Below are positions 1,930 to 26,232 of a DNA stretch of 64,000 nt, piece after piece. The translations under genes were made by a program, and so were the position numbers. The DNA is taken from the sequence record OK040806, one strand, 5' to 3'. The DNA comes from Escherichia phage CL1. How positions within the stretch are numbered: the stretch's first letter is position 1; each line of letters opens with the position of its first letter. The notes beneath the pieces were generated by a model. The model saw nothing but the letters and a program-made list of their open reading frames with translations. It did not search any database and was not told the DNA's origin.

Positions 1930-2970
1930 ATGGAGCAGTATACGCTAACAAAACTTCCAGATTCAGTTACACATGTCTTTATTGACTCTGACAGTATTGC
2001 CTATAAAGGTGCTTGTGTAGTTGAGAAAGCAAAATATAAATATGTCAATAAACTCACAGCAGAAGAATCTGAACCATTTGATAATGCAAAAGATGCTGCA
2101 AGATGGTTAGCAGACCAGAGAATCCTTGTAGAAGAGCTTGGCCTAACATTTGATGAAGATGAATGGGAAAGACAGACTTGGAAAGAAGCTAAGAGTGAAA
2201 AAGAAGCTATCATGGCTACTCAGCAGGTTCTTCAGGAATGGCTTAAGATTGTTGGTAAAGAAAGAACTTGGGTAGGTTACTTAACAGAAAAGGGTGTACA
2301 TAAACATAAAGACATTAAAGGTCTTGAGCACCAATATCAAGGTAACCGTAAGGATGCTGTCACACCAACACACTTAGTTGCTTGTCGTGAATATCTTCTG
2401 TCAAGACCAGAGTTTAAGCTTCTCCGTGGGGGATTTGAAGCCGATTCCATCGTAATTGCTAAAGCTGAAAAGATGGGTAAGAAGGCTGCTCTTATGAGTA
2501 TTGACAAAGACCTTCGACAAGCTGAGGGGACTTATTGTATTGATATGACTTATGAAAAGTCACCACTAATTTTTATTGCTGATAATAATGTTGGTGATAT
2601 CTGGGATTGTCCTATCAAATCAAAACCAAAAGCTGCAAAAACAGTTGGTGTAGGTTTTAAATTCTTGTGTTATCAGGCTGTTGCTGGAGATAATGCAGAC
2701 AACTACTTCGGCCTTAAAGGTGCTGGAAAGGTAGCTGTGATGAATGCTTTAGATGGTAAAGAGACATATAAAGAGTGTCTTGATGCTATCTATGAACTCT
2801 ATGCTAAAAAAGAGTCTTACACCTATGTATCATGGGATGGACAGACTGTCACAAAGACACCATTAGAGTTAATGGAACAGCATTTCTGGATAGCATATCA
2901 AGAGAGAAGTCCAAAAGATAATTTCTCTTTTAAGAAATATAATTGGGAGCCGTGTATGAATGAAGATTAA
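1930..2970 (+). CDS. 5'-3' exonuclease / flap endonuclease (RNase H-like)
   Basis: N-terminal VFIDSDSIAYKGA and helix-3-turn-helix motif AGDNADNYFGLKGAGKVAV typical of the FEN family. Confidence 0.7.
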   Translation: MEQYTLTKLPDSVTHVFIDSDSIAYKGACVVEKAKYKYVNKLTAEESEPFDNAKDAARWLADQRILVEELGLTFDEDEWERQTWKEAKSEKEAIMATQQVLQEWLKIVGKERTWVGYLTEKGVHKHKDIKGLEHQYQGNRKDAVTPTHLVACREYLLSRPEFKLLRGGFEADSIVIAKAEKMGKKAALMSIDKDLRQAEGTYCIDMTYEKSPLIFIADNNVGDIWDCPIKSKPKAAKTVGVGFKFLCYQAVAGDNADNYFGLKGAGKVAVMNALDGKETYKECLDAIYELYAKKESYTYVSWDGQTVTKTPLELMEQHFWIAYQERSPKDNFSFKKYNWEPCMNED

Positions 2971-3457
2971 AGGATTTGGCAATTGTCCCACCTATGGACA
3001 TTGGGTGTCTTTATGTGGGGAAGTTGACCCCACTAAACATTTTGGTTTTGTCTATTTAGTACACTGTAAGAAAACCGGACAATATTACATCGGAAAGAAA
3101 CAGCTTAATAGTGTGACCAAAAGAAAAGTTGCTGGCAAGACTCGGAAGAAGGTAGTCACTAAGGAAAGTGATTGGATGACTTATGAGACTTCTTCTGAGT
3201 ATATTAAAAAAGATATTGAGAGTTTTGGGAAAGAATTTTTTGACTTTTACATTATCCAAACCTACTACACGAAAGGTGGCCTAGTTTATGGTGAAGCAAA
3301 TCTCCAACATAAATTCGATGTAATGACAAAAAGGATTGACTCTAAGCTCAGACTCTTCTACAATGCCAATATTGCAGCAATTAAGTTTATTACTAAAGAA
3401 ACTTATGAAGATGCTGAAAAAAGAATCCATAAGGTAATGAAAGCGAATTGTGCTTGA
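2960..3457 (+). CDS. GIY-YIG family nuclease (endonuclease II-like size)
   Basis: Motif FVYLVH-x8-YYIGKK followed by basic stretch; 165 aa. Confidence 0.45.
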   Translation: MKIKGFGNCPTYGHWVSLCGEVDPTKHFGFVYLVHCKKTGQYYIGKKQLNSVTKRKVAGKTRKKVVTKESDWMTYETSSEYIKKDIESFGKEFFDFYIIQTYYTKGGLVYGEANLQHKFDVMTKRIDSKLRLFYNANIAAIKFITKETYEDAEKRIHKVMKANCA

Positions 3458-3478: not shown

Positions 3479-3727
3479 ATGTTTAACAAAAGTAAAGCTG
3501 TGAGTCATGTAGCAAAAGTTGACAGCAAGATTGAAGAACTTGAGCGCATTCTTGCAAATGCCAGAGAGTCAATCATTAAAGAAGTTGAAGCTGTTGAATC
3601 TCAAATGCAGCACCTAATGCTTAAACGTCAAGAGCTACGTGAGCATCTGGAATATATTGAAACGCGAGAGCTAAAGGTTAACAAATATTTTAAGGAGTCA
3701 GAATGTTTAACTCAAGAGAATCAGTAA
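3479..3727 (+). CDS. hypothetical coiled-coil protein
   Basis: ATG 3479 after GAGAGAG; track start 3464 is TTG. Confidence 0.45.
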   Translation: MFNKSKAVSHVAKVDSKIEELERILANARESIIKEVEAVESQMQHLMLKRQELREHLEYIETRELKVNKYFKESECLTQENQ

Positions 3728-4458
3728 AAAACTGGAACCTTCGTTGTGGAAACACCCAAAAGCAACCTTACAGTGACGAGTATTGGGAATCTTTAAAGTC
3801 TCAATCTCTATGTATGCTTGAAGAAGCAAAAGAGCTTGTGAAGGCAATTGAAGAGAAAGACCCAATTGAGACACTGGATGCTCAGGCAGATTTGCAATAT
3901 GTTCTTGACGGTTTGATTTACCTGTCACAACATGACCATAACGGTGCTATGAAAGCTGTTTGCCATAATAATGACCTGAAGTACACAGATGACTATGAAG
4001 AAGCTTTAAAACGTCTTGCAGATATTGAGAAGCGTACTGGTCAAGAGTGTATCATCAGAATGTCAGTAGTTGATGGTAAAGAGTGGTATGCAATTGTTCG
4101 TGCATCCGATGGGAAGATTATGAAACAGTCTAATCTCCCTAAAGTTCAGCTTGGTGAATACATTGTAGAACTTGAAAGCCAAGAACTTTTTGTGGTAGTA
4201 TCTGACACATGCGTTATCTGCAAAGGTATTGTAGGTAGCTTAAAGGATTTGGGTGTAGATGGTTTTGTAGAAGTTAATCCAATTACCTCTAAAGCAGATA
4301 AAGATTTCTGTAAAGAGAATGGACTATGGATTGCAGATATTATCTACTATGATGGTGAGCAGTTCCATGTAACCTCATACCCGAAACTGAATTATGATGC
4401 TAATAACCTGAAGTGCTGGTTAAAAGGGGTTGGTTATAATGGATTCACAGAACATTAA
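3703..4458 (+). CDS. hypothetical protein, possible MazG-like NTP pyrophosphohydrolase
   Basis: AAGGAG RBS; EEAKELVKAIEE ... DAQADLQYVLDGL acidic helix pattern weakly resembles the MazG EExxE/DxxD motifs. Confidence 0.3.
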   Translation: MFNSRESVKNWNLRCGNTQKQPYSDEYWESLKSQSLCMLEEAKELVKAIEEKDPIETLDAQADLQYVLDGLIYLSQHDHNGAMKAVCHNNDLKYTDDYEEALKRLADIEKRTGQECIIRMSVVDGKEWYAIVRASDGKIMKQSNLPKVQLGEYIVELESQELFVVVSDTCVICKGIVGSLKDLGVDGFVEVNPITSKADKDFCKENGLWIADIIYYDGEQFHVTSYPKLNYDANNLKCWLKGVGYNGFTEH

Positions 4459-12194: not shown

Positions 12195-12681
12195 ATGAAT
12201 TACATGGAGATTAGGCCATTTGACACAGCTAATGGTGAAGGGGTTCGTGTAAGCCTCTTTGTAGCTGGTTGTAAGCATCACTGTGAAGGCTGCTTTAACA
12301 GGGAGTCTTGGAAGTTTAATGCTGGTAAAGAGTTTACTTATGCAAACCTCTACGGCATCATTAAGTTAATGGATGATGAGGCCATCAGTGGGTTGTCAAT
12401 ACTCGGTGGAGAGCCTCTGGATGACAGAAATATTCAAGAGGTTACCAACATATGCAAACGTATTAAAACAGTTTACCCAGAAAAGTCTATATGGCTCTGG
12501 ACAGGTTTTCAGTTACACGAAAAAAATTCACTTAGATGTGATGAAATATGTTGACGTGGTGATTGATGGTAAGTATGATTCATCTAAACCAACAGTTAAA
12601 CCTTATCGTGGCTCTGATAACCAAAACCTCTGGAGAAAAGAGTATGGGTGGCAAGGTGATTGTCAATGGCGAGCAGAATAA
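12195..12681 (+). CDS. nrdG: anaerobic RNR activating protein (radical SAM), interrupted by apparent +1 frameshift in an A7 run
   Basis: CKHHCEGC radical-SAM cluster motif and ILGGEP in frame 1 (12195-12554); NrdG-like C-terminus VDVVIDGKYD..RGSDNQNLW in frame 2 (to 12681); frames join if A-run 12520-12526 has one fewer A. Confidence 0.8.
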
Positions 12682-13344: not shown

Positions 13345-13356
13345 ACAGATACTATA

Positions 13357-13383
13357 AGGGGACTGTAAAGGTTCCCTTTTTAT
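13357..13383 (+). terminator. intrinsic terminator
   Basis: GGGGAC..GTTCCC hairpin then TTTTTATTTT. Confidence 0.5.
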
Positions 13384-13395
13384 TTTGGAGATAAC

Positions 13396-13911
13396 ATGTA
13401 TCTGTCAAACCTGAAACGTTCGGCTGCAATGTCAGTTCTAAGACTCAGTTTTGAGGAACGTCAAGAGTTCATTGACTCCCACCAATACGACCCTTCTAAC
13501 TCAAATCACATGATTCTCTGGAATCGTGAGAGTACTCGTGAAAGAGCACTATTCCGCTATTACCCACACTACACTATAGATAACTTGTATGAATGTTTTG
13601 TTGTGAAGAACACCATTGCAGTGCTCAATAAGCTTTGCAGATACACAGGTAACAAGTCCTTCACATTAGGTCACCACAAACCTGTTACAAAAGGTGGTGA
13701 ACATCACTGCGCAAACTGGTTTATCCAAACTAAAGCTGATAACCAGAAGCAAGGAGATAGACTCCTAAGCATCCCTAAGATGACCTATGAAGAGCAAGAG
13801 AAATATATCAAAAATAATATGCCAGATGTGCTTGACAACAACTATACAGATTTGGCAATATCTCTCCTGTTGAAGTTCGAGACAGTTTATAGGGCAACTT
13901 ACAATGGCTAG
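13396..13911 (+). CDS. HNH endonuclease (putative homing endonuclease)
   Basis: GHHKPVTKGGEHHCANWFIQTKADNQKQGD resembles the HNH core. Confidence 0.55.
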   Translation: MYLSNLKRSAAMSVLRLSFEERQEFIDSHQYDPSNSNHMILWNRESTRERALFRYYPHYTIDNLYECFVVKNTIAVLNKLCRYTGNKSFTLGHHKPVTKGGEHHCANWFIQTKADNQKQGDRLLSIPKMTYEEQEKYIKNNMPDVLDNNYTDLAISLLLKFETVYRATYNG

Positions 13912-14182
13912 AACAGATTGGGAAGTAAAAGAACTTGTAAGTGATGCTGGAAATGGCTGTGAGATGTATATGATTCGTGGTCATGTACCAGACCCATTAG
14001 CTATTGAGATGATTGACCATCACACAAGTGGATTCTACAAAGAACTCGGTGAACCAAGTATTGAAAGAACTTGGACAAAACCAGTTCCAGATAGCACAGG
14101 TAACTGCTCAGTAATCTATCACATTGTGAATCCACAAAAATGCAAAACAGCTATGGCTGTGACATTCGTAACTTTTGATTGA
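13904..14182 (+). CDS. hypothetical protein
   Basis: 92 aa ORF. Confidence 0.5.
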   Translation: MARTDWEVKELVSDAGNGCEMYMIRGHVPDPLAIEMIDHHTSGFYKELGEPSIERTWTKPVPDSTGNCSVIYHIVNPQKCKTAMAVTFVTFD

Positions 14183-14193
14183 GAGGGAAAACT

Positions 14194-15075
14194 ATGAAAA
14201 CATCTATCCGTGTTACAGTTCATTCACCAACTAAAGGTACTCATGAAGAAGAGTTTAACATCATCCAATTTCCTTCTGGTGAGATTGGTGGACACTTTTC
14301 ACAAGAGCTTGTTGATTTCACTGCTTATGCAGCATCATCCATCAACAATGTGATTATGATTGTAAAAGGTTATGATAAAGACACATTGTTTGCTGTGGCA
14401 CTTGCTAAAGAAGCAATTGATGATTTAGTCCCTCATGATTATGCTTTAAAGACTGTCATCTTTTACTACTTACCAAATGCACGATACGACCGTCACATGT
14501 TTAAAGGTGATGCAGCAGCTTTAAAGGTTTTTGCTAAGCAGGTCAATGCAATGGGGTTTGGCGCAGTCTGTGCAGTTGACCCTCACAGTTATGTACCAGA
14601 TAACCTGTTTAACTGCTTCCAGAGTATTCCTCAAAAGGAAATTGCAGTCCACTATGCAAATGACCCACTGGTTGATTACTTAGTAGCCCCAGATGCAGGT
14701 GCTTCTAAGAAGATTGCAGAGACTGCTAAAGAGGTGGATAAACCATATGTCACAATGTCTAAAGTACGTAACCTTAAGACTGGTGAAATTACTGGTATGC
14801 GAATCCTTGATGATGTTGATTTGACAGATAAAACCGTCATGATTCTGGATGATATTTGCGATGGTGGTCGAACCTTCATAGAGGCAGCTAAACATCTTCG
14901 TGAAGCAGGTGCAAGACGTGTGGAACTCTATGTAACTCATGGCATTTTCTCTAAAGGTGTTGAAAACTTGCTTGACAACGGCATTGACCACATCTACACT
15001 ACAAACTCTTTAGGGGAAGCTAAAGACCGTGGCTTAACACATTATGGTCAAGTTACTGTAGCAAACCTTGATTAA
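14194..15075 (+). CDS. prs: ribose-phosphate pyrophosphokinase-like (PRPP synthetase family; candidate ADP-ribose pyrophosphate synthetase)
   Basis: PRPP-binding motif VMILDDICDGGRT; ATG 14194 after GAGGG; immediately upstream of NampT-like gene. Confidence 0.85.
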   Translation: MKTSIRVTVHSPTKGTHEEEFNIIQFPSGEIGGHFSQELVDFTAYAASSINNVIMIVKGYDKDTLFAVALAKEAIDDLVPHDYALKTVIFYYLPNARYDRHMFKGDAAALKVFAKQVNAMGFGAVCAVDPHSYVPDNLFNCFQSIPQKEIAVHYANDPLVDYLVAPDAGASKKIAETAKEVDKPYVTMSKVRNLKTGEITGMRILDDVDLTDKTVMILDDICDGGRTFIEAAKHLREAGARRVELYVTHGIFSKGVENLLDNGIDHIYTTNSLGEAKDRGLTHYGQVTVANLD

Positions 15076-15084
15076 AACTTTATA

Positions 15085-15105
15085 GGGGCTTACAAGCCCC
15101 ATTTT
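15085..15105 (+). terminator. intrinsic terminator
   Basis: GGGGCTT-AC-AAGCCCC hairpin then ATTTT. Confidence 0.5.
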
Positions 15106-15120
15106 GAGAGAGATTAAAAG

Positions 15121-16902
15121 ATGACTAACTCACTTTATGCAGTACCAGCAGGTTTAAACGCAGATGCTTACAAATCTGGCCATATTTATCAGTATCCTAG
15201 TGTAACAGAGCATCTAATGTTCAACCTGACACCACGTAGTGATAAATGGTTTAACAGCCCTTTAGCAATTGATGGTGTAGTAGCTTTTGGTATTCAACGT
15301 TTTGTTAAAGATTACTTGATAGACCACTGGAATGCCACCTTCTTTGAACGTGACAAAAAAGAAGCAATTGACGAAATCTTGGAAGTCATGAACGGTGTTC
15401 TGGGTAAAGATGCTATTGGTCGAGAACATTGGGAAGCACTTCACGACTTAGGTTATCTACCAGTTGAAGTATACGCTGTAGAAGAAGGTACAGTTGTCCC
15501 TATGCGTGTTCCAATGATTGTATTCCAGAACACTGTTTCAGGTTTCCATTGGGTAGCAGGGTATCTAGAAGATGCTTTCTCTGCTGAGATTTGGAAGGCT
15601 TGTACCATTGCAACTATTGCATTGCACTACAAACGTATCTGTAAGAAGTGGTCTGACCTTACTTGTGACAATGACTTACATTTACCTTATCAGTGCCATG
15701 ATTTTGCTATGCGTGGTATGTCCGGCTTTACTGATGACGCATTTAACGCTGTAGGTCACTTGACTAGCTTTAAAGGAACTGATAGCTTCCCTGCTGTGTA
15801 TACAGCTAAACGCACCTATGGACAGTCCTACCCAATCTCTGATATCGGTGGTTCTGTACCAGCCACTGAGCATTCTGTAATGTGTGCAAACATTGCTTGG
15901 GAAGGTGGTAATGAGTTGATTGAAGAAGAAAGACGCTTTAAAGGTGAGTTACAAACCTTTCGTCGTTTCTTAACAGAAACTTACCCAACTGGTATTGCAA
16001 GTGTTGTTTCAGATACTTATAACTTCTGGAGAACTGTGTCAGAAATCTTACCAGCACTTCGCAAAGAGATTATGGAACGTGATGGTAAACTGGTGATTCG
16101 TCCTGACTCTGGAGACCCTGTACATATTGTCACAGGATATAAAGCAATCCACTTAGAGTGTGCTAAAAAGGCTTATTATGAACACCTAAGCAAGCTGGAA
16201 GCCAGTGACACAATGCTGAATGCTGTTCTGAACATGAAGCTTGAGAACATCAACTATGGTATTGCTGGGTGGCTACTGTCAGAAGGCTACGAAATGGTTG
16301 TTGACAGAGAAGACTTTGAAGTTGCCGATACAGTAATGTTGAAAAATGCTTATATGGTTGGTTCTGCAAACGTTGTAACGCGTCCTGTAGCGGAGATTGA
16401 TGGAGCTATCAAGACACTGTATAACATCTTTGGAGGAACTATCAACTCTAAAGGTTTTAAAGTACTGGATGAGCACATCGGGCTTATTTATGGCGACTCT
16501 ATCACGTTGGAACGTGCAAACGAAATACTGAAGCGTTTGTATGAAATGGGTTTTGCAAGCTCTAACGTAGTGTTTGGTGTAGGTTCTTACACTTACCAGT
16601 ACATGACTCGTGACACCTTTGCATTTGCTGTCAAAGCAACTCTTGCAAGCATTGGTGGTAAAGAGATTATGCTTGCAAAAGACCCTAAAACAGATAGTGG
16701 TGTTAAGAAGTCTGCTTTTGGTGGAGTAGCACCTATGTGGGATGGTGAAAATCTGAAAGCTGTAGATGGCTATGGGTTCCAGAGCTTTGCAGATGCACTT
16801 GAACACCCAGCTTGTGCTTTACGTTTAGTCTTTAGCGACTCTGAGCAGTTCGGCTACACGACTCTTGGTGATATTCGAAATAATATTGACAAGCAGCTTT
16901 AA
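15121..16902 (+). CDS. nadV: nicotinamide phosphoribosyltransferase family protein (NampT/NadV-like)
   Basis: 593 aa; N-terminal AVPAGLNADAYKSGHIYQYP typical of NampT. Confidence 0.85.
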   Translation: MTNSLYAVPAGLNADAYKSGHIYQYPSVTEHLMFNLTPRSDKWFNSPLAIDGVVAFGIQRFVKDYLIDHWNATFFERDKKEAIDEILEVMNGVLGKDAIGREHWEALHDLGYLPVEVYAVEEGTVVPMRVPMIVFQNTVSGFHWVAGYLEDAFSAEIWKACTIATIALHYKRICKKWSDLTCDNDLHLPYQCHDFAMRGMSGFTDDAFNAVGHLTSFKGTDSFPAVYTAKRTYGQSYPISDIGGSVPATEHSVMCANIAWEGGNELIEEERRFKGELQTFRRFLTETYPTGIASVVSDTYNFWRTVSEILPALRKEIMERDGKLVIRPDSGDPVHIVTGYKAIHLECAKKAYYEHLSKLEASDTMLNAVLNMKLENINYGIAGWLLSEGYEMVVDREDFEVADTVMLKNAYMVGSANVVTRPVAEIDGAIKTLYNIFGGTINSKGFKVLDEHIGLIYGDSITLERANEILKRLYEMGFASSNVVFGVGSYTYQYMTRDTFAFAVKATLASIGGKEIMLAKDPKTDSGVKKSAFGGVAPMWDGENLKAVDGYGFQSFADALEHPACALRLVFSDSEQFGYTTLGDIRNNIDKQL

Positions 16903-16916
16903 AAGTATATGATAAA

Positions 16917-16939
16917 AGGCTCCTACGGGAGCCTTTTTA
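16917..16939 (+). terminator. intrinsic terminator
   Basis: AGGCTCC-TACG-GGAGCCT hairpin then TTTTT. Confidence 0.6.
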
Positions 16940-16955
16940 ATTTCTGGAGAATGCT

Positions 16956-17300
16956 ATGGACAACCTTTCCATATGGTTTAACAAGAAACCTGTGCAACCA
17001 AAATACTTACAAGTTGCATATACAGACATCCTTGAAGTTCTCGGTAAAGAAAAGTTTGAAAAGTTTTGTGAAGGTATCTACAATCACCACTGCCAATTTG
17101 CTACAAAAGAAGGTATGTTTGTCATAGAACAGTTCTTTGGCAGAGACCCAGATGACTACGAAGAGATTAGCTTTGTAATGAAATACATGATAGAGTATAT
17201 TGAAAATCGTGGATTCGAAGTTAATCCTGAATTTTATGAACATGAGGGTGTGCCTTTAGTAAAAGGTTTTGATGGCATACTCGTTAACTGGACTTGGTGA
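16956..17300 (+). CDS. hypothetical protein
   Basis: 114 aa ORF with ATG start. Confidence 0.5.
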   Translation: MDNLSIWFNKKPVQPKYLQVAYTDILEVLGKEKFEKFCEGIYNHHCQFATKEGMFVIEQFFGRDPDDYEEISFVMKYMIEYIENRGFEVNPEFYEHEGVPLVKGFDGILVNWTW

Positions 17301-17827: not shown

Positions 17828-20194
17828 ATGCGCATGGTAAACGACCACGCAGAAGTGATTAAGAGTTCAACTTCTTTAGAGACGTCTCAAGCACAGATTA
17901 CAATGACACCTGAAATGTTCAGCCTTTTGAGTTCTGGTGTATACACCTTTAAAGAAAGGGCAGTGATTCGTGAGCTGTCATGTAACGCAGTAGATGCTCA
18001 GAAAGAAGCTGGAAAAGAGAACATCCCGTTCCATGTGCATTTGCCTACTCGTTTTGAGCCTTACTTTGAAGTTCGTGATTTTGGAACTGGATTAACTCAT
18101 GATAAAGTTATGAGTTTGTACCTAAACTACGGGGCTTCTACGAAGAATGACTCTAATGACTACATTGGTGCAATGGGTATCGGCTCGAAATCCCCATTTG
18201 CAATTGCTCAGTCATTCACAGTGTCCAGTTATGTTGATGGTGTTGTTAATAAGTACTCTGTTTATCTTGAGAATGGTATCCCTCAAGTGACTAAACTTAC
18301 TACTAACCCAACAAAAGAGCCAAATGGCTTAGCTGTACGTGTAGCAGTTGCTGACCATCGTATCTCAAAGTTCTTTGAAGAAGCTGGTCACGTATACTCA
18401 TACTTTGCTGTAAAACCGGAAAGTAATATCGAGTATGACGATGTACTAGCAGATATGAACGTCATTGCCCGTGAAGAAGGTGTTTACGATGCTATGATTC
18501 ATAAGCAAAGCTGGCGTTCTGGTGCTAATAGGACAGAGTTTAATGTGGTGATGGGTAACATTGCATACCCTGTTAATATGGAAGCATTACTTGGTGATGA
18601 TTTCTTCAAAGTCTTGCCAGAATTTTTCCGTAGGAGCGTAGACCTTGTAAACATCTACATGCCTATTGGTTCAGTTGCTATTGCAGCTTCTCGTGAAGCA
18701 TTGCAGATGAATGACACGACAAAAAATGTTATCATTGAGGCTACTAAAAAGATAACCGAAGCAATTACAAAGGATGTTATCAAGAAAGTTAATAACCAAC
18801 CTACACTCATGGATGCTGCACAGGCTTATGCTGAGTTACGTTTGAACTCACGAGAGATGTTTAATGCTGTGTGTCCAAAGCTAGAGTGGGGTGGTGTTAA
18901 GCTTGATTCTCTGGAAGAAGAATTACTAAACATTCGTCGTGGAATTATCTACGCAGAAGACGGCTCAGTCATTTATGAACGTGACGGTAAAGGTAATATT
19001 AAGGTTGATAGGAACGGGAACAATATCCCTAAAGTAGATTATCTTTATGACCCAGTTGCTTATGTCAAGTTCAACTCTTTAGAGAGTAAGATTCGTGCAA
19101 CATCGCTTTCCTACACTCAAGAGGCAAGTATGTTCAATATCTTTGGCGCAATGCGTAAAAGCCAAATTGAACAGTTTTTGTTTGTTATCAATGACCGTCG
19201 CAATAAAAATGGTACTGAGAAGACTGTAGGACGCAATCAAATCTTGCGTGGTGCATGTCGAGACTATGCCAGTGAGTCAAATCTGTTTCACAGATACAAC
19301 GGTATTGTCTTTGTATTCTCTACTGAGAAAGAGTTAGACGACTTAATCAATCTGCACAAACTTGATAAAAGCTTGTTAAAGATTGTGAAGATGTCTGATA
19401 AGGAACACCATTATCAGCGTAAAGAAGCTGTAAGAGGTGTTGTAAAACTCTGGAAAGCTGTTCCAGCAGAAGGTGTAGCTTCATACACAGAGGTGTCAGA
19501 AGACTTAGACACAATTGAAGAGCCTCAACTTTATATCAAGGCAGTAGGTGATACTGTTGATGGTGAATGTTTTTGCTCATCTCCAGATGATGTAGCTAAG
19601 TCAGTTGCCAATGTCATTGGAAAGACAGTCTATGTTTTCCGAAAAGCAAATTGGAAAAAGATACCAGAAGACTGGATTGAAGTAGATGAGAAGCTCTTGA
19701 ACGACAGCTTAACTGATGTTCACTGGATTAACCATAACAGATATATGACACGTATCTACATGAATGGTGTCCTTGACCTCACAAGCAGTTGGATTATTGC
19801 CAGAAACTTTACGTTCAATAACAAGAAGATTTCTCGTGGCTATTGCTATTCACGAGACACAAACAAAACTATCTTCTTAGAAGGTAATGAAGATGCTGTT
19901 GAGGCAATGTTTGGTAAAATCCAATACGTTGCTGCACCGTTTGCATACACTTACACTATTAGCGTGTTGCAAGATTTGAAAAGTTGTCTTGATAATGATA
20001 CAAAGCTTTACAAGAAAATTAAGAAAGCTGGTGACCGCATGGTCATTAAGGTGACAAACTACCTTTCAAAAAGAAAACAAGAAAACTTCTTGCTTTCTCA
20101 TTTAGATTGGAATAAAGTGTCACCCATCGAAGTGAGTAAGTTCTTAGGCTTTGATGTGAAGTGTGTTCCAGAAGGGACTACAATTTACGATTAA
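17828..20194 (+). CDS. rIIA: rIIA-like protein (GHKL ATPase fold)
   Basis: GHKL motifs IRELSCNAVDAQ, VRDFGTGL, GAMGIGSKSPFA; order and motifs match T4 rIIA as recalled. Confidence 0.85.
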   Translation: MRMVNDHAEVIKSSTSLETSQAQITMTPEMFSLLSSGVYTFKERAVIRELSCNAVDAQKEAGKENIPFHVHLPTRFEPYFEVRDFGTGLTHDKVMSLYLNYGASTKNDSNDYIGAMGIGSKSPFAIAQSFTVSSYVDGVVNKYSVYLENGIPQVTKLTTNPTKEPNGLAVRVAVADHRISKFFEEAGHVYSYFAVKPESNIEYDDVLADMNVIAREEGVYDAMIHKQSWRSGANRTEFNVVMGNIAYPVNMEALLGDDFFKVLPEFFRRSVDLVNIYMPIGSVAIAASREALQMNDTTKNVIIEATKKITEAITKDVIKKVNNQPTLMDAAQAYAELRLNSREMFNAVCPKLEWGGVKLDSLEEELLNIRRGIIYAEDGSVIYERDGKGNIKVDRNGNNIPKVDYLYDPVAYVKFNSLESKIRATSLSYTQEASMFNIFGAMRKSQIEQFLFVINDRRNKNGTEKTVGRNQILRGACRDYASESNLFHRYNGIVFVFSTEKELDDLINLHKLDKSLLKIVKMSDKEHHYQRKEAVRGVVKLWKAVPAEGVASYTEVSEDLDTIEEPQLYIKAVGDTVDGECFCSSPDDVAKSVANVIGKTVYVFRKANWKKIPEDWIEVDEKLLNDSLTDVHWINHNRYMTRIYMNGVLDLTSSWIIARNFTFNNKKISRGYCYSRDTNKTIFLEGNEDAVEAMFGKIQYVAAPFAYTYTISVLQDLKSCLDNDTKLYKKIKKAGDRMVIKVTNYLSKRKQENFLLSHLDWNKVSPIEVSKFLGFDVKCVPEGTTIYD

Positions 20195-20199
20195 AGTGT

Positions 20200-20229
20200 T
20201 TGACAAGGGGCTTCAAAGCCCCTTAGAAT
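20200..20229 (+). promoter_or_regulatory. sigma70-like promoter (TTGACA-N18-TAGAAT) with hairpin in spacer
   Basis: TTGACA 20200-20205, TAGAAT 20224-20229; spacer contains GGGGCTTCAAAGCCCC. Confidence 0.45.
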
Positions 20230-20273
20230 AGCCTTACAAAATGATTTATTAACTAACAAGAGAGAGTAATAAG

Positions 20274-21383
20274 ATGACTACTAAAACTAAAGCACAGATT
20301 GACGCAGAAATTTACGAACTGGTTAAAGAAGGTAAGCTGACTAAAACAGCTATTGCACAGAAGTTCAATACTTCAACCCGTTCAGTTGGTCGTGCTGTAG
20401 AGCGTCATGAAGCAACCTTAAAAGGTAAGAAGAAGGCGACTTCTACACCAGCTAAAAAGACCCTAAAGCAAGTTGCTAAGTCAGTTAAAAAGAAAGCTGA
20501 CAAACCAGTTGAAAAGGCCGTTAAAGACGCTGTACAGAAAGCTCCAGTAAATAAACTGCATGAAGCTATGCAGAAAGATGACAAGATTGAGTACATGATT
20601 ACTGGTGACTCTGTAATTATGACTTACGGTTCAGAATCTGAAATTGTTGAGTCTACTCATCCGAACTATCAAGAGATTGTAGTTCATGTTGTGAAAGGTG
20701 AGTTCAAGAAAGCATTTGAACTGATGAACATTCGTAAGTCTATCGAAAACTTCACTCAGGGTGCTATCACAATCAAAGGTGACAAGCTCTTCTACGGTGC
20801 TGTTGAGATGCGTTCTACTCTGGTTGACCGTATTCTTCATATGATGAAAACTGGTGATAAAGGTTTTGAACGACTTGTAATGTTCTTCGAAAAACTGATG
20901 GAAAACCCATCTAAAGATTCTGTAGAACAACTTTGGGGATTTGTATCACACCTTGATGTTGAAATTGATGAAGAAGGCTACATCATTGGTTGGAAGAAAG
21001 TCTCTACTCGTGAAGGCAAGCTGGTTGACTCTCACACCTACAAAGTGCCTAATGATTTGGGTAACATTGTAGAGATGCCACGTTGGATGGTTGATAACAA
21101 CCGTAACGTAACTTGCTCTCAAGGTCTTCATGTTGGTGCTTGGGATTATGTTCGTTGCTTCTCAGGTGATACCATCCTGAAGGTTCGTGTCCATCCACGA
21201 GATGTTGTATCTGTTCCGACTGATTACAACGATATGAAGATGCGCTCCTCTCGTTATGAAGTTGCAGCAATCGTTGATAATCAACGTAAAGTGCTGAAAG
21301 CATGGGATGGTAAGACTGAAGCTTTGCATGTCATTGTTGGCACTGCTGGTGAACTCATCTCTCAACGTAAACGTGAAATCTAA
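20274..21383 (+). CDS. rIIB: rIIB-like protein
   Basis: C-terminal KVRVHPRDVVSVPTDYNDMKMR and SQGLHVGAWDY match rIIB as recalled; directly downstream of rIIA. Confidence 0.85.
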   Translation: MTTKTKAQIDAEIYELVKEGKLTKTAIAQKFNTSTRSVGRAVERHEATLKGKKKATSTPAKKTLKQVAKSVKKKADKPVEKAVKDAVQKAPVNKLHEAMQKDDKIEYMITGDSVIMTYGSESEIVESTHPNYQEIVVHVVKGEFKKAFELMNIRKSIENFTQGAITIKGDKLFYGAVEMRSTLVDRILHMMKTGDKGFERLVMFFEKLMENPSKDSVEQLWGFVSHLDVEIDEEGYIIGWKKVSTREGKLVDSHTYKVPNDLGNIVEMPRWMVDNNRNVTCSQGLHVGAWDYVRCFSGDTILKVRVHPRDVVSVPTDYNDMKMRSSRYEVAAIVDNQRKVLKAWDGKTEALHVIVGTAGELISQRKREI

Positions 21384-25446: not shown

Positions 25447-26232
25447 ATGGGTATTGTGAAAATCATCAATGGTGATATCTTTGCAGCATTTGATAAAGGT
25501 AAGTTTGATGTCATCGGTCACGGTTGCAACTGTATGAACTTAATGGGTGCAGGTATCGCTGACAAGATTTCTAAACTTTACCCAAAAGCATATGAGACTG
25601 ATACAGAAGTTTATCTGTATGCAGGTGGCATAGGCCACAAGCCCTGTGAGAATTTACTAGGCAATTTCTCTGTAGCACGTTTAAAACAAGGTCGTATAGC
25701 TAACCTTTACACTCAGCTTAAGACTGGTAAAGATGCCCGATACAGTGCTTTAGAGTCATCTTTGAAACAACTTAACAGATACTGTGAAGTAAATCAGTTG
25801 AAGAAAGTTGGCTTGCCTATGATTGGTGCAGGTATCGGTGGGCTAGACCCTCAAGCCGTCACAGTTATCATTAATCAGGTGATGAAGAGTGTAGATGTGT
25901 ATCTGTATGTCTACGAGACAAAGATGTACAACGAGTTACACTCAGGTTGGAAGAACTACTGCGAACCAGAATACTTTGCAGGTGTAGTAACGTTCACAGA
26001 CAATACAGTTACCCTCTTCAGACGAAGAAAAGGTAAGATACATCAAAGTAACCCTCCGGTTGAGAAGATGTCTCTAAGTAACGCTCTAGTTACCCACCTG
26101 TCGAAGAGCAATCACAGGATAGCTGTAACATTTGGTAGTGATGCAGATACATATATCTATGCAAGAACTGATGAGGATATCGAGACGGTCTTCTCTTCAC
26201 CAGAAGTTACCTTTTTAGGCGCAAAGAACTAA
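25447..26232 (+). CDS. macro-domain-like protein (putative ADP-ribose binding/hydrolase) with C-terminal extension
   Basis: INGDIF..DVIGHGCNCMNLMGAGIA and VGLPMIGAGIGGLDP resemble the two conserved macro-domain glycine-rich motifs. Confidence 0.45.
   Translation: MGIVKIINGDIFAAFDKGKFDVIGHGCNCMNLMGAGIADKISKLYPKAYETDTEVYLYAGGIGHKPCENLLGNFSVARLKQGRIANLYTQLKTGKDARYSALESSLKQLNRYCEVNQLKKVGLPMIGAGIGGLDPQAVTVIINQVMKSVDVYLYVYETKMYNELHSGWKNYCEPEYFAGVVTFTDNTVTLFRRRKGKIHQSNPPVEKMSLSNALVTHLSKSNHRIAVTFGSDADTYIYARTDEDIETVFSSPEVTFLGAKN

Follow-up and report, generated by a model that had tools for sequence, protein, structure and literature searches.

A NARP1 operon, encoding Adps and Namat, in Escherichia phage CL1

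The adjacent genes adps and namat at positions 14194-16902 of a 64,000-nucleotide stretch of Escherichia phage CL1 (record OK040806; this whole stretch is called the window below) very probably form the NARP1 operon (NAD+ reconstitution pathway 1; Adps and Namat) of a Felixounavirus. We put the probability of this reading at about 0.93. The pair is already known and nothing is new in the pair itself: genes 79-80 of Felixounavirus Bas63 are where NARP1 was first described (Osterman et al., bioRxiv 10.1101/2024.02.11.579819), and Felixounaviruses have about 250 copies of the pair, that of the window being one. The pathway was published in 2024, and the structures of its enzymes were solved in 2025-2026. 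The basis contributed here consists of orthology, synteny, signature residues, fold, the absence of a nicotinamide mononucleotide (NMN) adenylyltransferase (NMNAT) and a prior listing of the genes; chemistry and phenotype are taken from the literature on orthologues, and the window alleles presumably share the activity of those orthologues.

The initial annotation had described a Prs-family gene with the motif DDICDGGRT directly 5' of a 593-aa Nampt-family gene, and both open reading frames (ORFs) are indeed present on the plus strand. The first, adps (14194-15075, plus strand, ATG start), encodes a phosphoribosyl pyrophosphate (PRPP) synthetase-like protein of 293 aa, assigned as ADP-ribose pyrophosphokinase from orthology, sequence identities and Supplementary Table 1 of Osterman et al. 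The second, namat (15121-16902, plus strand), encodes a Nampt-like protein of 593 aa, assigned as nicotinamide ADP-ribose transferase from orthology, a fold match and Supplementary Table 2 of the same paper. The mechanical first start of the adps ORF is an in-frame TTG at 14179; the annotated start is the ATG at 14194, with the Shine-Dalgarno sequence GAGGG 7-11 nt 5' of it. The ATG of namat is preceded by GAGAG.

A total of 231 phage records span at least 80% of window positions 14000-17000. One of them is 100% identical (Escherichia phage C600M2, OK040807.1), and the other 230 are Ounavirinae. C600M2 is a Felixounavirus from wastewater in Qatar with E. coli K-12 as host of isolation; the window extends beyond the end of its linear record, into the structural module. 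The two C600M2 genes are found in the tables of the discovery paper, OK040807_00070 in Supplementary Table 1 (Prs/Adps) with the entry 'Namat within 10 genes: Yes', and OK040807_00071 in Supplementary Table 2 (NadV) as 'Adps-associated' (Osterman et al., bioRxiv 10.1101/2024.02.11.579819). According to the literature a namat gene stands beside adps in 97% of the Adps clade, and at the window locus the two genes lie on the same strand, separated by 45 nt.

For comparison we used the genome record of the BASEL phage Bas63 (JohannRWettstein, MZ501086). The lengths of its gp79 and gp80 match those of the window proteins (293 and 593 aa), and the gene order and the neighbours on both sides are alike within the same genus. 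Both proteins align without gaps, Adps at 78% and Namat at 97% amino acid identity, the latter including its two selectivity elements and an 88-aa insertion, which are described below. The difference lies in the N-terminal domain of Adps and in the 92-aa gene upstream of it, which are another allele in the window. The syntenic orthologues of Bas63 79-80, the signatures of both proteins and the listing in the discovery paper bear out the counter-defence reading of NARP1 type, which was the one of its two readings that the initial annotation had favoured.

According to the published mechanism, the pathway would be triggered when an NAD+-cleaving host defence (SIR2-HerA/Nezha, DSR2, type I Thoeris, Kongming or SPARSA) leaves ADP-ribose (ADPR) and nicotinamide. 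Adps, with its PRPP-synthetase fold, would then pyrophosphorylate ADPR at the 1'' hydroxyl of its distal ribose, the pyrophosphate being the beta,gamma moiety of ATP, and so yield ADPR-PP and AMP. Namat, with its Nampt fold, would let nicotinamide displace the pyrophosphate of ADPR-PP, giving NAD+ and pyrophosphate without NMN or an NMNAT. The choice of ADPR-PP over PRPP would be made by an adenine-stacking clamp, in the window protein Trp43 of the beta1-beta2 loop together with Tyr490/Tyr494 of the GSYTYQYMTRD helix. Since the substrate arises only after NAD+ cleavage, the pathway would work only when the defence fires.

The phenotype is known for orthologues in Bas63, in Fado and in a knock-in of SBSphiJ. 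Without genes 79-80, Bas63 plates about 20-fold less well on SIR2-HerA and NAD+ no longer recovers; neither pncC nor nadR of the host is needed for this, i.e. SIR2-HerA is still overcome in a pncC nadR host; and in metabolomics of Bas63 infection ADPR-PP is seen only when genes 79-80 and the defence system are both present (Osterman et al., bioRxiv 10.1101/2024.02.11.579819). In an independent genome-wide knockout study of Bas63, deletion of either gene singly (gp79 or gp80) reduced plating on Sir2-HerA by 1e4-1e6-fold and complementation rescued it, with weaker effects on retron Ec86 and hhe. On the enzymatic side, SpbetaL1 Adps gives no product from ribose-5-phosphate (R5P) and ATP (Fig. 2D legend) and forms ADPR-PP from ADPR and ATP (Osterman et al., bioRxiv 10.1101/2024.02.11.579819).

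Window Adps matches the Pfam domains Pribosyltran and Pribosyl_synth, and phrog_619 at 1.2e-96. Profiles of housekeeping Prs, a comparison that had been proposed with the initial annotation, speak for NARP1: all Prs equivalog models of NCBIfam score some 190 bits or more short of their cut-offs (best 103 versus 296 bits), and the protein clears only the broad subfamily model TIGR01251 (118 versus a cut-off of 113 bits). Its identity is 31-33% to the Adps of Vibrio phages ICP1 and Cody, and 24% to E. coli Prs. Placement in the wider family was done by orthology and the published table. As the PDB copy searched contained no solved Adps (best match Sulfolobus Prs 4twb, E = 2.8e-17), membership was judged from sequence, and on that footing the protein appears to belong to the phage Adps clade, the validated Adps being closer to it than the cellular Prs.

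The active-site comparison was made in an alignment of the Adps of ICP1, Vibrio phage Cody, Klebsiella phage 0507-KN2-1 and Bas63 with E. coli Prs. All of the following ICP1 residues are kept in the window protein: R87 (R97), H121 (H131), D161 (D167), K185 (K190), D212 (D219), D213 (D220) and D216 (D223), window numbering in brackets. Lys190 (codon 14761-14763, plus strand) stands in the column of Lys185, the catalytic residue of ICP1 Adps, and of Prs Lys194, a column that is invariant in two alignments; the K185A mutation in ICP1 Adps abolishes ADPR-PP formation (PMC13586617). The PP loop DDICDGGRT (residues 219-227; 14848-14874, plus strand), which is the motif flagged initially, lies within residues 217-228, ILDDICDGGRTF. 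Its DDICDG part is common to the window protein and ICP1 Adps (DDICDGAAS), and the full DDICDGGRT is found also in the Adps of Klebsiella phage 0507-KN2-1. The loop of E. coli Prs is DDMIDTGGT, and the ribose-5-phosphate pattern DxxDTGGT is absent from window Adps.

ICP1 Adps is a PRPS-like two-domain protein whose catalytic lysine, acceptor residues and DDICDG loop recur in the window protein. It is described as contacting the ADPR adenine through aromatic residues (F18, F92) and as having lost the C-terminal alpha11-alpha12 regulatory module (PMC13586617). The differences are an overall identity of only about 31%, the tail of the PP loop (GGRT in the window versus GAAS) and the C-terminus: window Adps has 22 aa fewer than E. 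coli Prs, whose last approximately 15 residues it lacks, but retains more of the C-terminus than ICP1 Adps does.

Window Namat matches Pfam NAPRTase and NAMPT_N, phrog_448 at 5.8e-201 and NCBIfam PRK09198 (464.6 bits versus a cut-off of 405). The Nampt-type catalytic core is intact (Y17, F195, R198, D221, H251, R327, D329). In the alignment His251 falls on the PATEH-motif histidine of SpbetaL1 Namat, His245, and it is invariant in 38 homologues; by analogy with His247 of human NAMPT it is probably the catalytic histidine. The NAD+-contact residues of SpbetaL1 Namat were all conserved or conservatively replaced, the window set being D15, Y17, F195, R198, D221, A248, R327, D329, G458, D459, G488, S489, Y490, Y494, T496, R497 and D498.

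Adenine selectivity in Namat is ascribed to a clamp with two elements, derived from the SpbetaL1 structure: a helix with the motif GSX-Phi-X-Phi-X-Phi-TRD, X being aromatic, and a loop in which position 3 is either Arg or else Lys/Tyr with a stacking residue directly after it (PMC12774641). The selectivity-clamp helix (SCH) of the window protein, GSYTYQYMTRD (residues 488-498; 16582-16614, plus strand), fits this published consensus, and the same motif type is seen in 38 of 38 aligned homologues. SpbetaL1 Namat has GSFTYQYNTRD at this place, and the true Nampts have GAQTYQRNTRD (Haemophilus ducreyi NadV, HdNadV) and GGALLQKVDRD (Xanthomonas, Xcc); in this motif comparison the aromatic clamp of Namat type was found in neither HdNadV nor the Xcc Nampt. 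The selectivity-clamp loop (SCL), SDKWFNSPLA (residues 40-49; 15238-15267, plus strand), is identical to that of Bas63 Namat and follows the loop rule (PMC12774641), with S40-D41-K42-W43 placing Lys42 at position 3. Trp43 is the predicted adenine-stacking residue, by analogy with Bas63 Namat, for which stacking by Trp has been modelled (PMC12774641).

The best PDB sequence matches of window Namat were 9w5w and 9w5x (E about 1e-125). An AlphaFold2 model was built on the 38 homologues with no ligand included (pLDDT 93.5, pTM 0.92). Searched with Foldseek, this model returned as top matches the same Namat crystal structures 9w5x and 9w5w (E about 5e-53, target TM 0.94-0.95), with HdNadV and mammalian NAMPT ranking behind them. 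SpbetaL1 Namat (PDB 9w5w/9w5x; PMC12774641) shares the fold, the catalytic core and the SCH motif type with the window protein, at 48% identity over 478 aligned residues. It differs at the SCL, where the stacking Arg40 of SpbetaL1 maps to the Lys-Trp position of the window protein, and in length: window Namat is about 100 aa longer, with 88 aa after the RPDSGDP strand and about 15 aa at residues 258-272. The 88-residue insertion subdomain (residues 340-427; 16138-16401, plus strand) is absent from solved SpbetaL1 Namat and Nampt, and is a fold-orphan with no known fold. Chromosomal Namat-type homologues of about 496 aa and about 47% identity were observed in Klebsiella, Cronobacter, Erwinia, Phytobacter and Kosakonia genomes; they are without the insertion and carry the motif GS[YF]TYQYNTRD, in line with reported bacterial copies of NARP1.

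Four points weigh against NARP1 as the function of the pair. The adenine contacts F18 and F92 of ICP1 Adps align with T16 and M102, and F223 is likewise not conserved in the window alignment, where the N-terminal part is unreliable at about 31% identity. The window allele of Adps differs from that of Bas63, the N-terminal approximately 180 residues being about 53-87% identical per 30-residue block. The in vitro biochemistry comes from the SpbetaL1 and ICP1 enzymes, since Bas63 Adps did not purify, and these are only about 31-48% identical to the window proteins, so that its transfer is by analogy. Finally, Namat keeps an NMN-forming activity with PRPP in vitro, about half that of human Nampt (PMC12774641), and therefore some conventional salvage flux would be possible.

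This last activity is also an argument for ordinary NAD+ salvage, the other reading offered initially, in which a true Prs makes PRPP, NadV/Nampt makes NMN, and host NadR or PncC/NadD finish NAD+. All database labels agree with it, i.e. GenBank, PHROGs, Pfam and NCBIfam (PRK09198) give 'ribose-phosphate pyrophosphokinase' and 'nicotinamide/nicotinate phosphoribosyltransferase', and TIGR01251 is passed, if narrowly. Cellular Prs and NadV/Nampt belong to the same two protein superfamilies and share the nicotinamide-transfer chemistry, as does NARP2 of KVP40, but in NARP1 the first acceptor is ADPR instead of R5P and the second donor ADPR-PP instead of PRPP. For the Bas63 orthologue, at 78% and 97% identity, salvage is contradicted by counter-defence in the pncC nadR host and by ADPR-PP appearing only with genes 79-80. 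The inactivity of SpbetaL1 Adps on R5P, the wide margins by which the Prs equivalog models are missed, the Adps-type CDGGRT in place of the Prs loop DTGGT, and the Namat-specific aromatic clamp that HdNadV and Xcc Nampt do not have all argue in the same direction, and we regard salvage as very unlikely. As the databases still give housekeeping names, a label-based scan would miss this anti-defence operon; NARP1 can be recognised from sequence by two motifs, GS[FY]T[YM][QN][YMF]xTRD in Namat and the loop DDI[CS]DG in Adps.

A different route to NAD+ would be one like NARP2 or NARP3, in which the Nampt homologue makes NMN and an unrecognised phage NMNAT or a NadR/PnuC pair elsewhere completes NAD+. 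NARP2 consists of a Nampt with a linked Nmnat/Nudix protein (KVP40; bioRxiv 10.1101/2024.02.11.579819), and NARP3 of PnuC-like and NadR-like proteins. Room for such genes exists, as about 24 kb of the phage genome lie beyond the window and numerous small ORFs are without a functional assignment. A Pfam scan covered the five neighbouring ORFs and, in window 1-49300 and thus short of the structural region, another 32 ORFs with a minimum length of 110 aa, these 32 as concatenated translations in which weak matches could be hidden. It showed no domain of the types CTP_transf_like, Nudix, NadR or PnuC, and within this scope neither NARP2 nor NARP3 seems to be what is present. No NMNAT is annotated in the Bas63 genome either, including the part that corresponds to sequence outside the window (tail, baseplate and replication genes). 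The initial annotation had recognised no NMNAT nearby, had named a linked one as a finding that would refute NARP1, and had called its absence weak evidence; the domain scan agrees on the absence, and the argument from it is weak as stated. NARP1, which needs no NMNAT, is also marked in phages by the Adps neighbour, unlike NARP2, and the gene is tabulated as 'Adps-associated'. Together these observations leave a NARP2- or NARP3-like route only a slight chance.

The divergence of Adps from Bas63 is confined to a mosaic patch at about 13900-14700, covering the 92-aa gene and the N-terminal approximately 170 codons of adps, where nucleotide identity to Bas63 is 59-80%; the flanks are at 90-99%. 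Across phage records the identity of Adps has a bimodal distribution: 154 records reach 90% or more, and 94, of the Bas63 type, lie at 60-80%. By this patch divergence and the bimodal identities, two alleles of the Adps N-domain circulate by recombination in Felixounaviruses, with Bas63 bearing the rarer one. The idea that the pair has decayed or been repurposed in this phage, e.g. that the divergent Adps allele is inactive or has another acceptor, can appeal to the mosaic patch, to the putative adenine contact F16 of Bas63 Adps being T16 in the window protein and to a frameshift in nrdG of the same genome record, but is hardly credible with both ORFs intact and full length, all catalytic and acceptor residues of Adps retained and the window allele being the commoner one in the genus.

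Beyond the NARP1 operon itself, the window encodes a Macro-domain protein of 261 aa that is a candidate accessory (25447-26232, plus strand; Pfam Macro 32.3 bits versus a cut-off of 22; phrog_335 'phosphatase'). With bas63_0095 it shares 96% identity. The known NARP1-AP of Vibrio phage Gary is organised as Adps-Adpp-Namat, Adpp being an ADPR-1''-phosphate phosphatase (bioRxiv 10.64898/2026.01.28.702374). Cody gp176, whose gene lies between adps and namat, is three residues off the assayed Gary Adpp (about 98% identical), and the window Macro protein has 29% identity to gp176 across all of gp176 (E = 8e-15). The homology to Adpp covers the N-terminal approximately 155 aa. Like that of Gary, the genome has Adps, Namat and a Macro-domain protein, and the HxCNC and GLPxIGxG loops are kept. 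The differences are that the window protein has an extra region of about 100 aa at the C-terminus and that its gene stands outside the operon, 8.5 kb and about 20 genes downstream; the Pfam scan of the five ORFs neighbouring the operon showed no Macro domain, so that the linkage seen in NARP1-AP is missing here. Felixounaviruses are not in the published table of NARP1-associated Macro proteins (bioRxiv 10.64898/2026.01.28.702374). The protein is also 34-35% identical to Tk.4-type Macro proteins of T-even phages, i.e. at least as close to them as to Cody gp176. T-even phages are not known to carry NARP1.

The Macro-domain protein may, judged by these similarities, be an unlinked ADPR-1''-phosphate phosphatase that feeds NARP1. 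In the same way, the two Adps N-domain alleles and the 92-aa gene may reflect selection by Adps-targeting host factors or differing ADPR-derived substrates, and the 88-aa insertion may provide Namat with a further surface, for regulation or for binding a partner. Taken together these would make a dispersed, extended NARP1, with a trans-acting Adpp-like Macro protein, selected Adps alleles and the Namat insertion as regulatory or partner surface, a combination that we consider rather doubtful. If true, the Macro protein would dephosphorylate ADPR-1''-phosphate or trim ADPR derivatives and feed Adps in trans, and the phage would so resist RES-type NADases even with no phosphatase gene in the operon. 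The ideas on the Macro protein, on the pair of Adps alleles and on the insertion in Namat are hypotheses that groups studying Bas63 could take up cheaply.

The NARP1 genes are preceded by a 171-aa orthologue of Bas63 gp77 (13396-13911, plus strand; 95% amino acid identity to bas63_0077; phrog_3500), which is not part of NARP1, and by the 92-aa orthologue of gp78 (13904-14182, plus strand; 68% amino acid identity to bas63_0078; phrog_4726) inside the mosaic patch, which stops 12 nt 5' of the adps start. A consensus scan gave terminator-like hairpins with a T run on both sides. The transcription unit is predicted to be bounded upstream by the hairpin at 13356-13378 (plus strand; RNA fold -14.1 kcal/mol, z = -2.5) and to end at the one at 16914-16937 (plus strand; 10-bp stem, RNA fold -16.5 kcal/mol, z = -3.3), which starts 12 nt past the namat stop codon. 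Between these hairpins the closely spaced gp77 and gp78 orthologues, adps and namat are probably co-transcribed. The sigma-70 promoter scan gave 26 matches versus 18.7 +/- 3.4 in shuffled sequence, and since this barely exceeds expectation no promoter was assigned. Within the adps/namat spacer there is a GC-rich hairpin GGGGCU-UACA-AGCCCC followed by AUUUU (15085-15100, plus strand), the fold of 15072-15120 having -12.6 kcal/mol (z = -2.9). It stays below the criteria of the terminator scan, and from its sequence may act as an attenuator or partial terminator, or as an RNA-stability element, setting the ratio of Adps to Namat.

The 92-aa gene was considered as a NARP1 accessory and not retained: it has no Pfam match, the tblastn matches of its protein are nearly all in Felixounavirus-type Ounavirinae phages, and this restriction is evidence neither way. 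Retron Ec67 is reportedly countered by Bas63 gp77, a protein described as GIY-YIG. Its 171-aa orthologue in the window gave no GIY-YIG match in the Pfam scan; a weak match to an HNH-endonuclease PHROG and an HNH-like stretch, GHHKPVTKGGEHHCANW, were observed. Just downstream of the NARP1 unit, homologues of rIIA and rIIB are found at 17828-21383 (plus strand). Their Bas63 orthologues g84 and g85 are reported to counter the QatABCD defence, and as these stand beside the NARP1 unit the stretch can be read as an anti-defence gene cluster.

A few further features of the window were recorded. The nrdG gene (anaerobic ribonucleotide reductase activase, 12195-12681) is split into two overlapping ORFs by one extra A in the homopolymer at 12514-12520 (A7 in the window, A6 in Bas63). 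Either the frameshift is real or the deposited genome contains a sequencing error. There are 26 tRNA genes at 44139-49275 (plus strand), which are all of the phage, the number agreeing with the C600M2 genome announcement; the tRNAs of Bas63 were reported as mostly non-essential in the genome-wide knockout study. The early region contains, at 2960-3457 and 3703-4458 (plus strand), a SegE-type GIY-YIG homing endonuclease (92.8 bits) and a protein with a weak MazG-like PRA-PH pyrophosphohydrolase domain (E = 1.9e-4).

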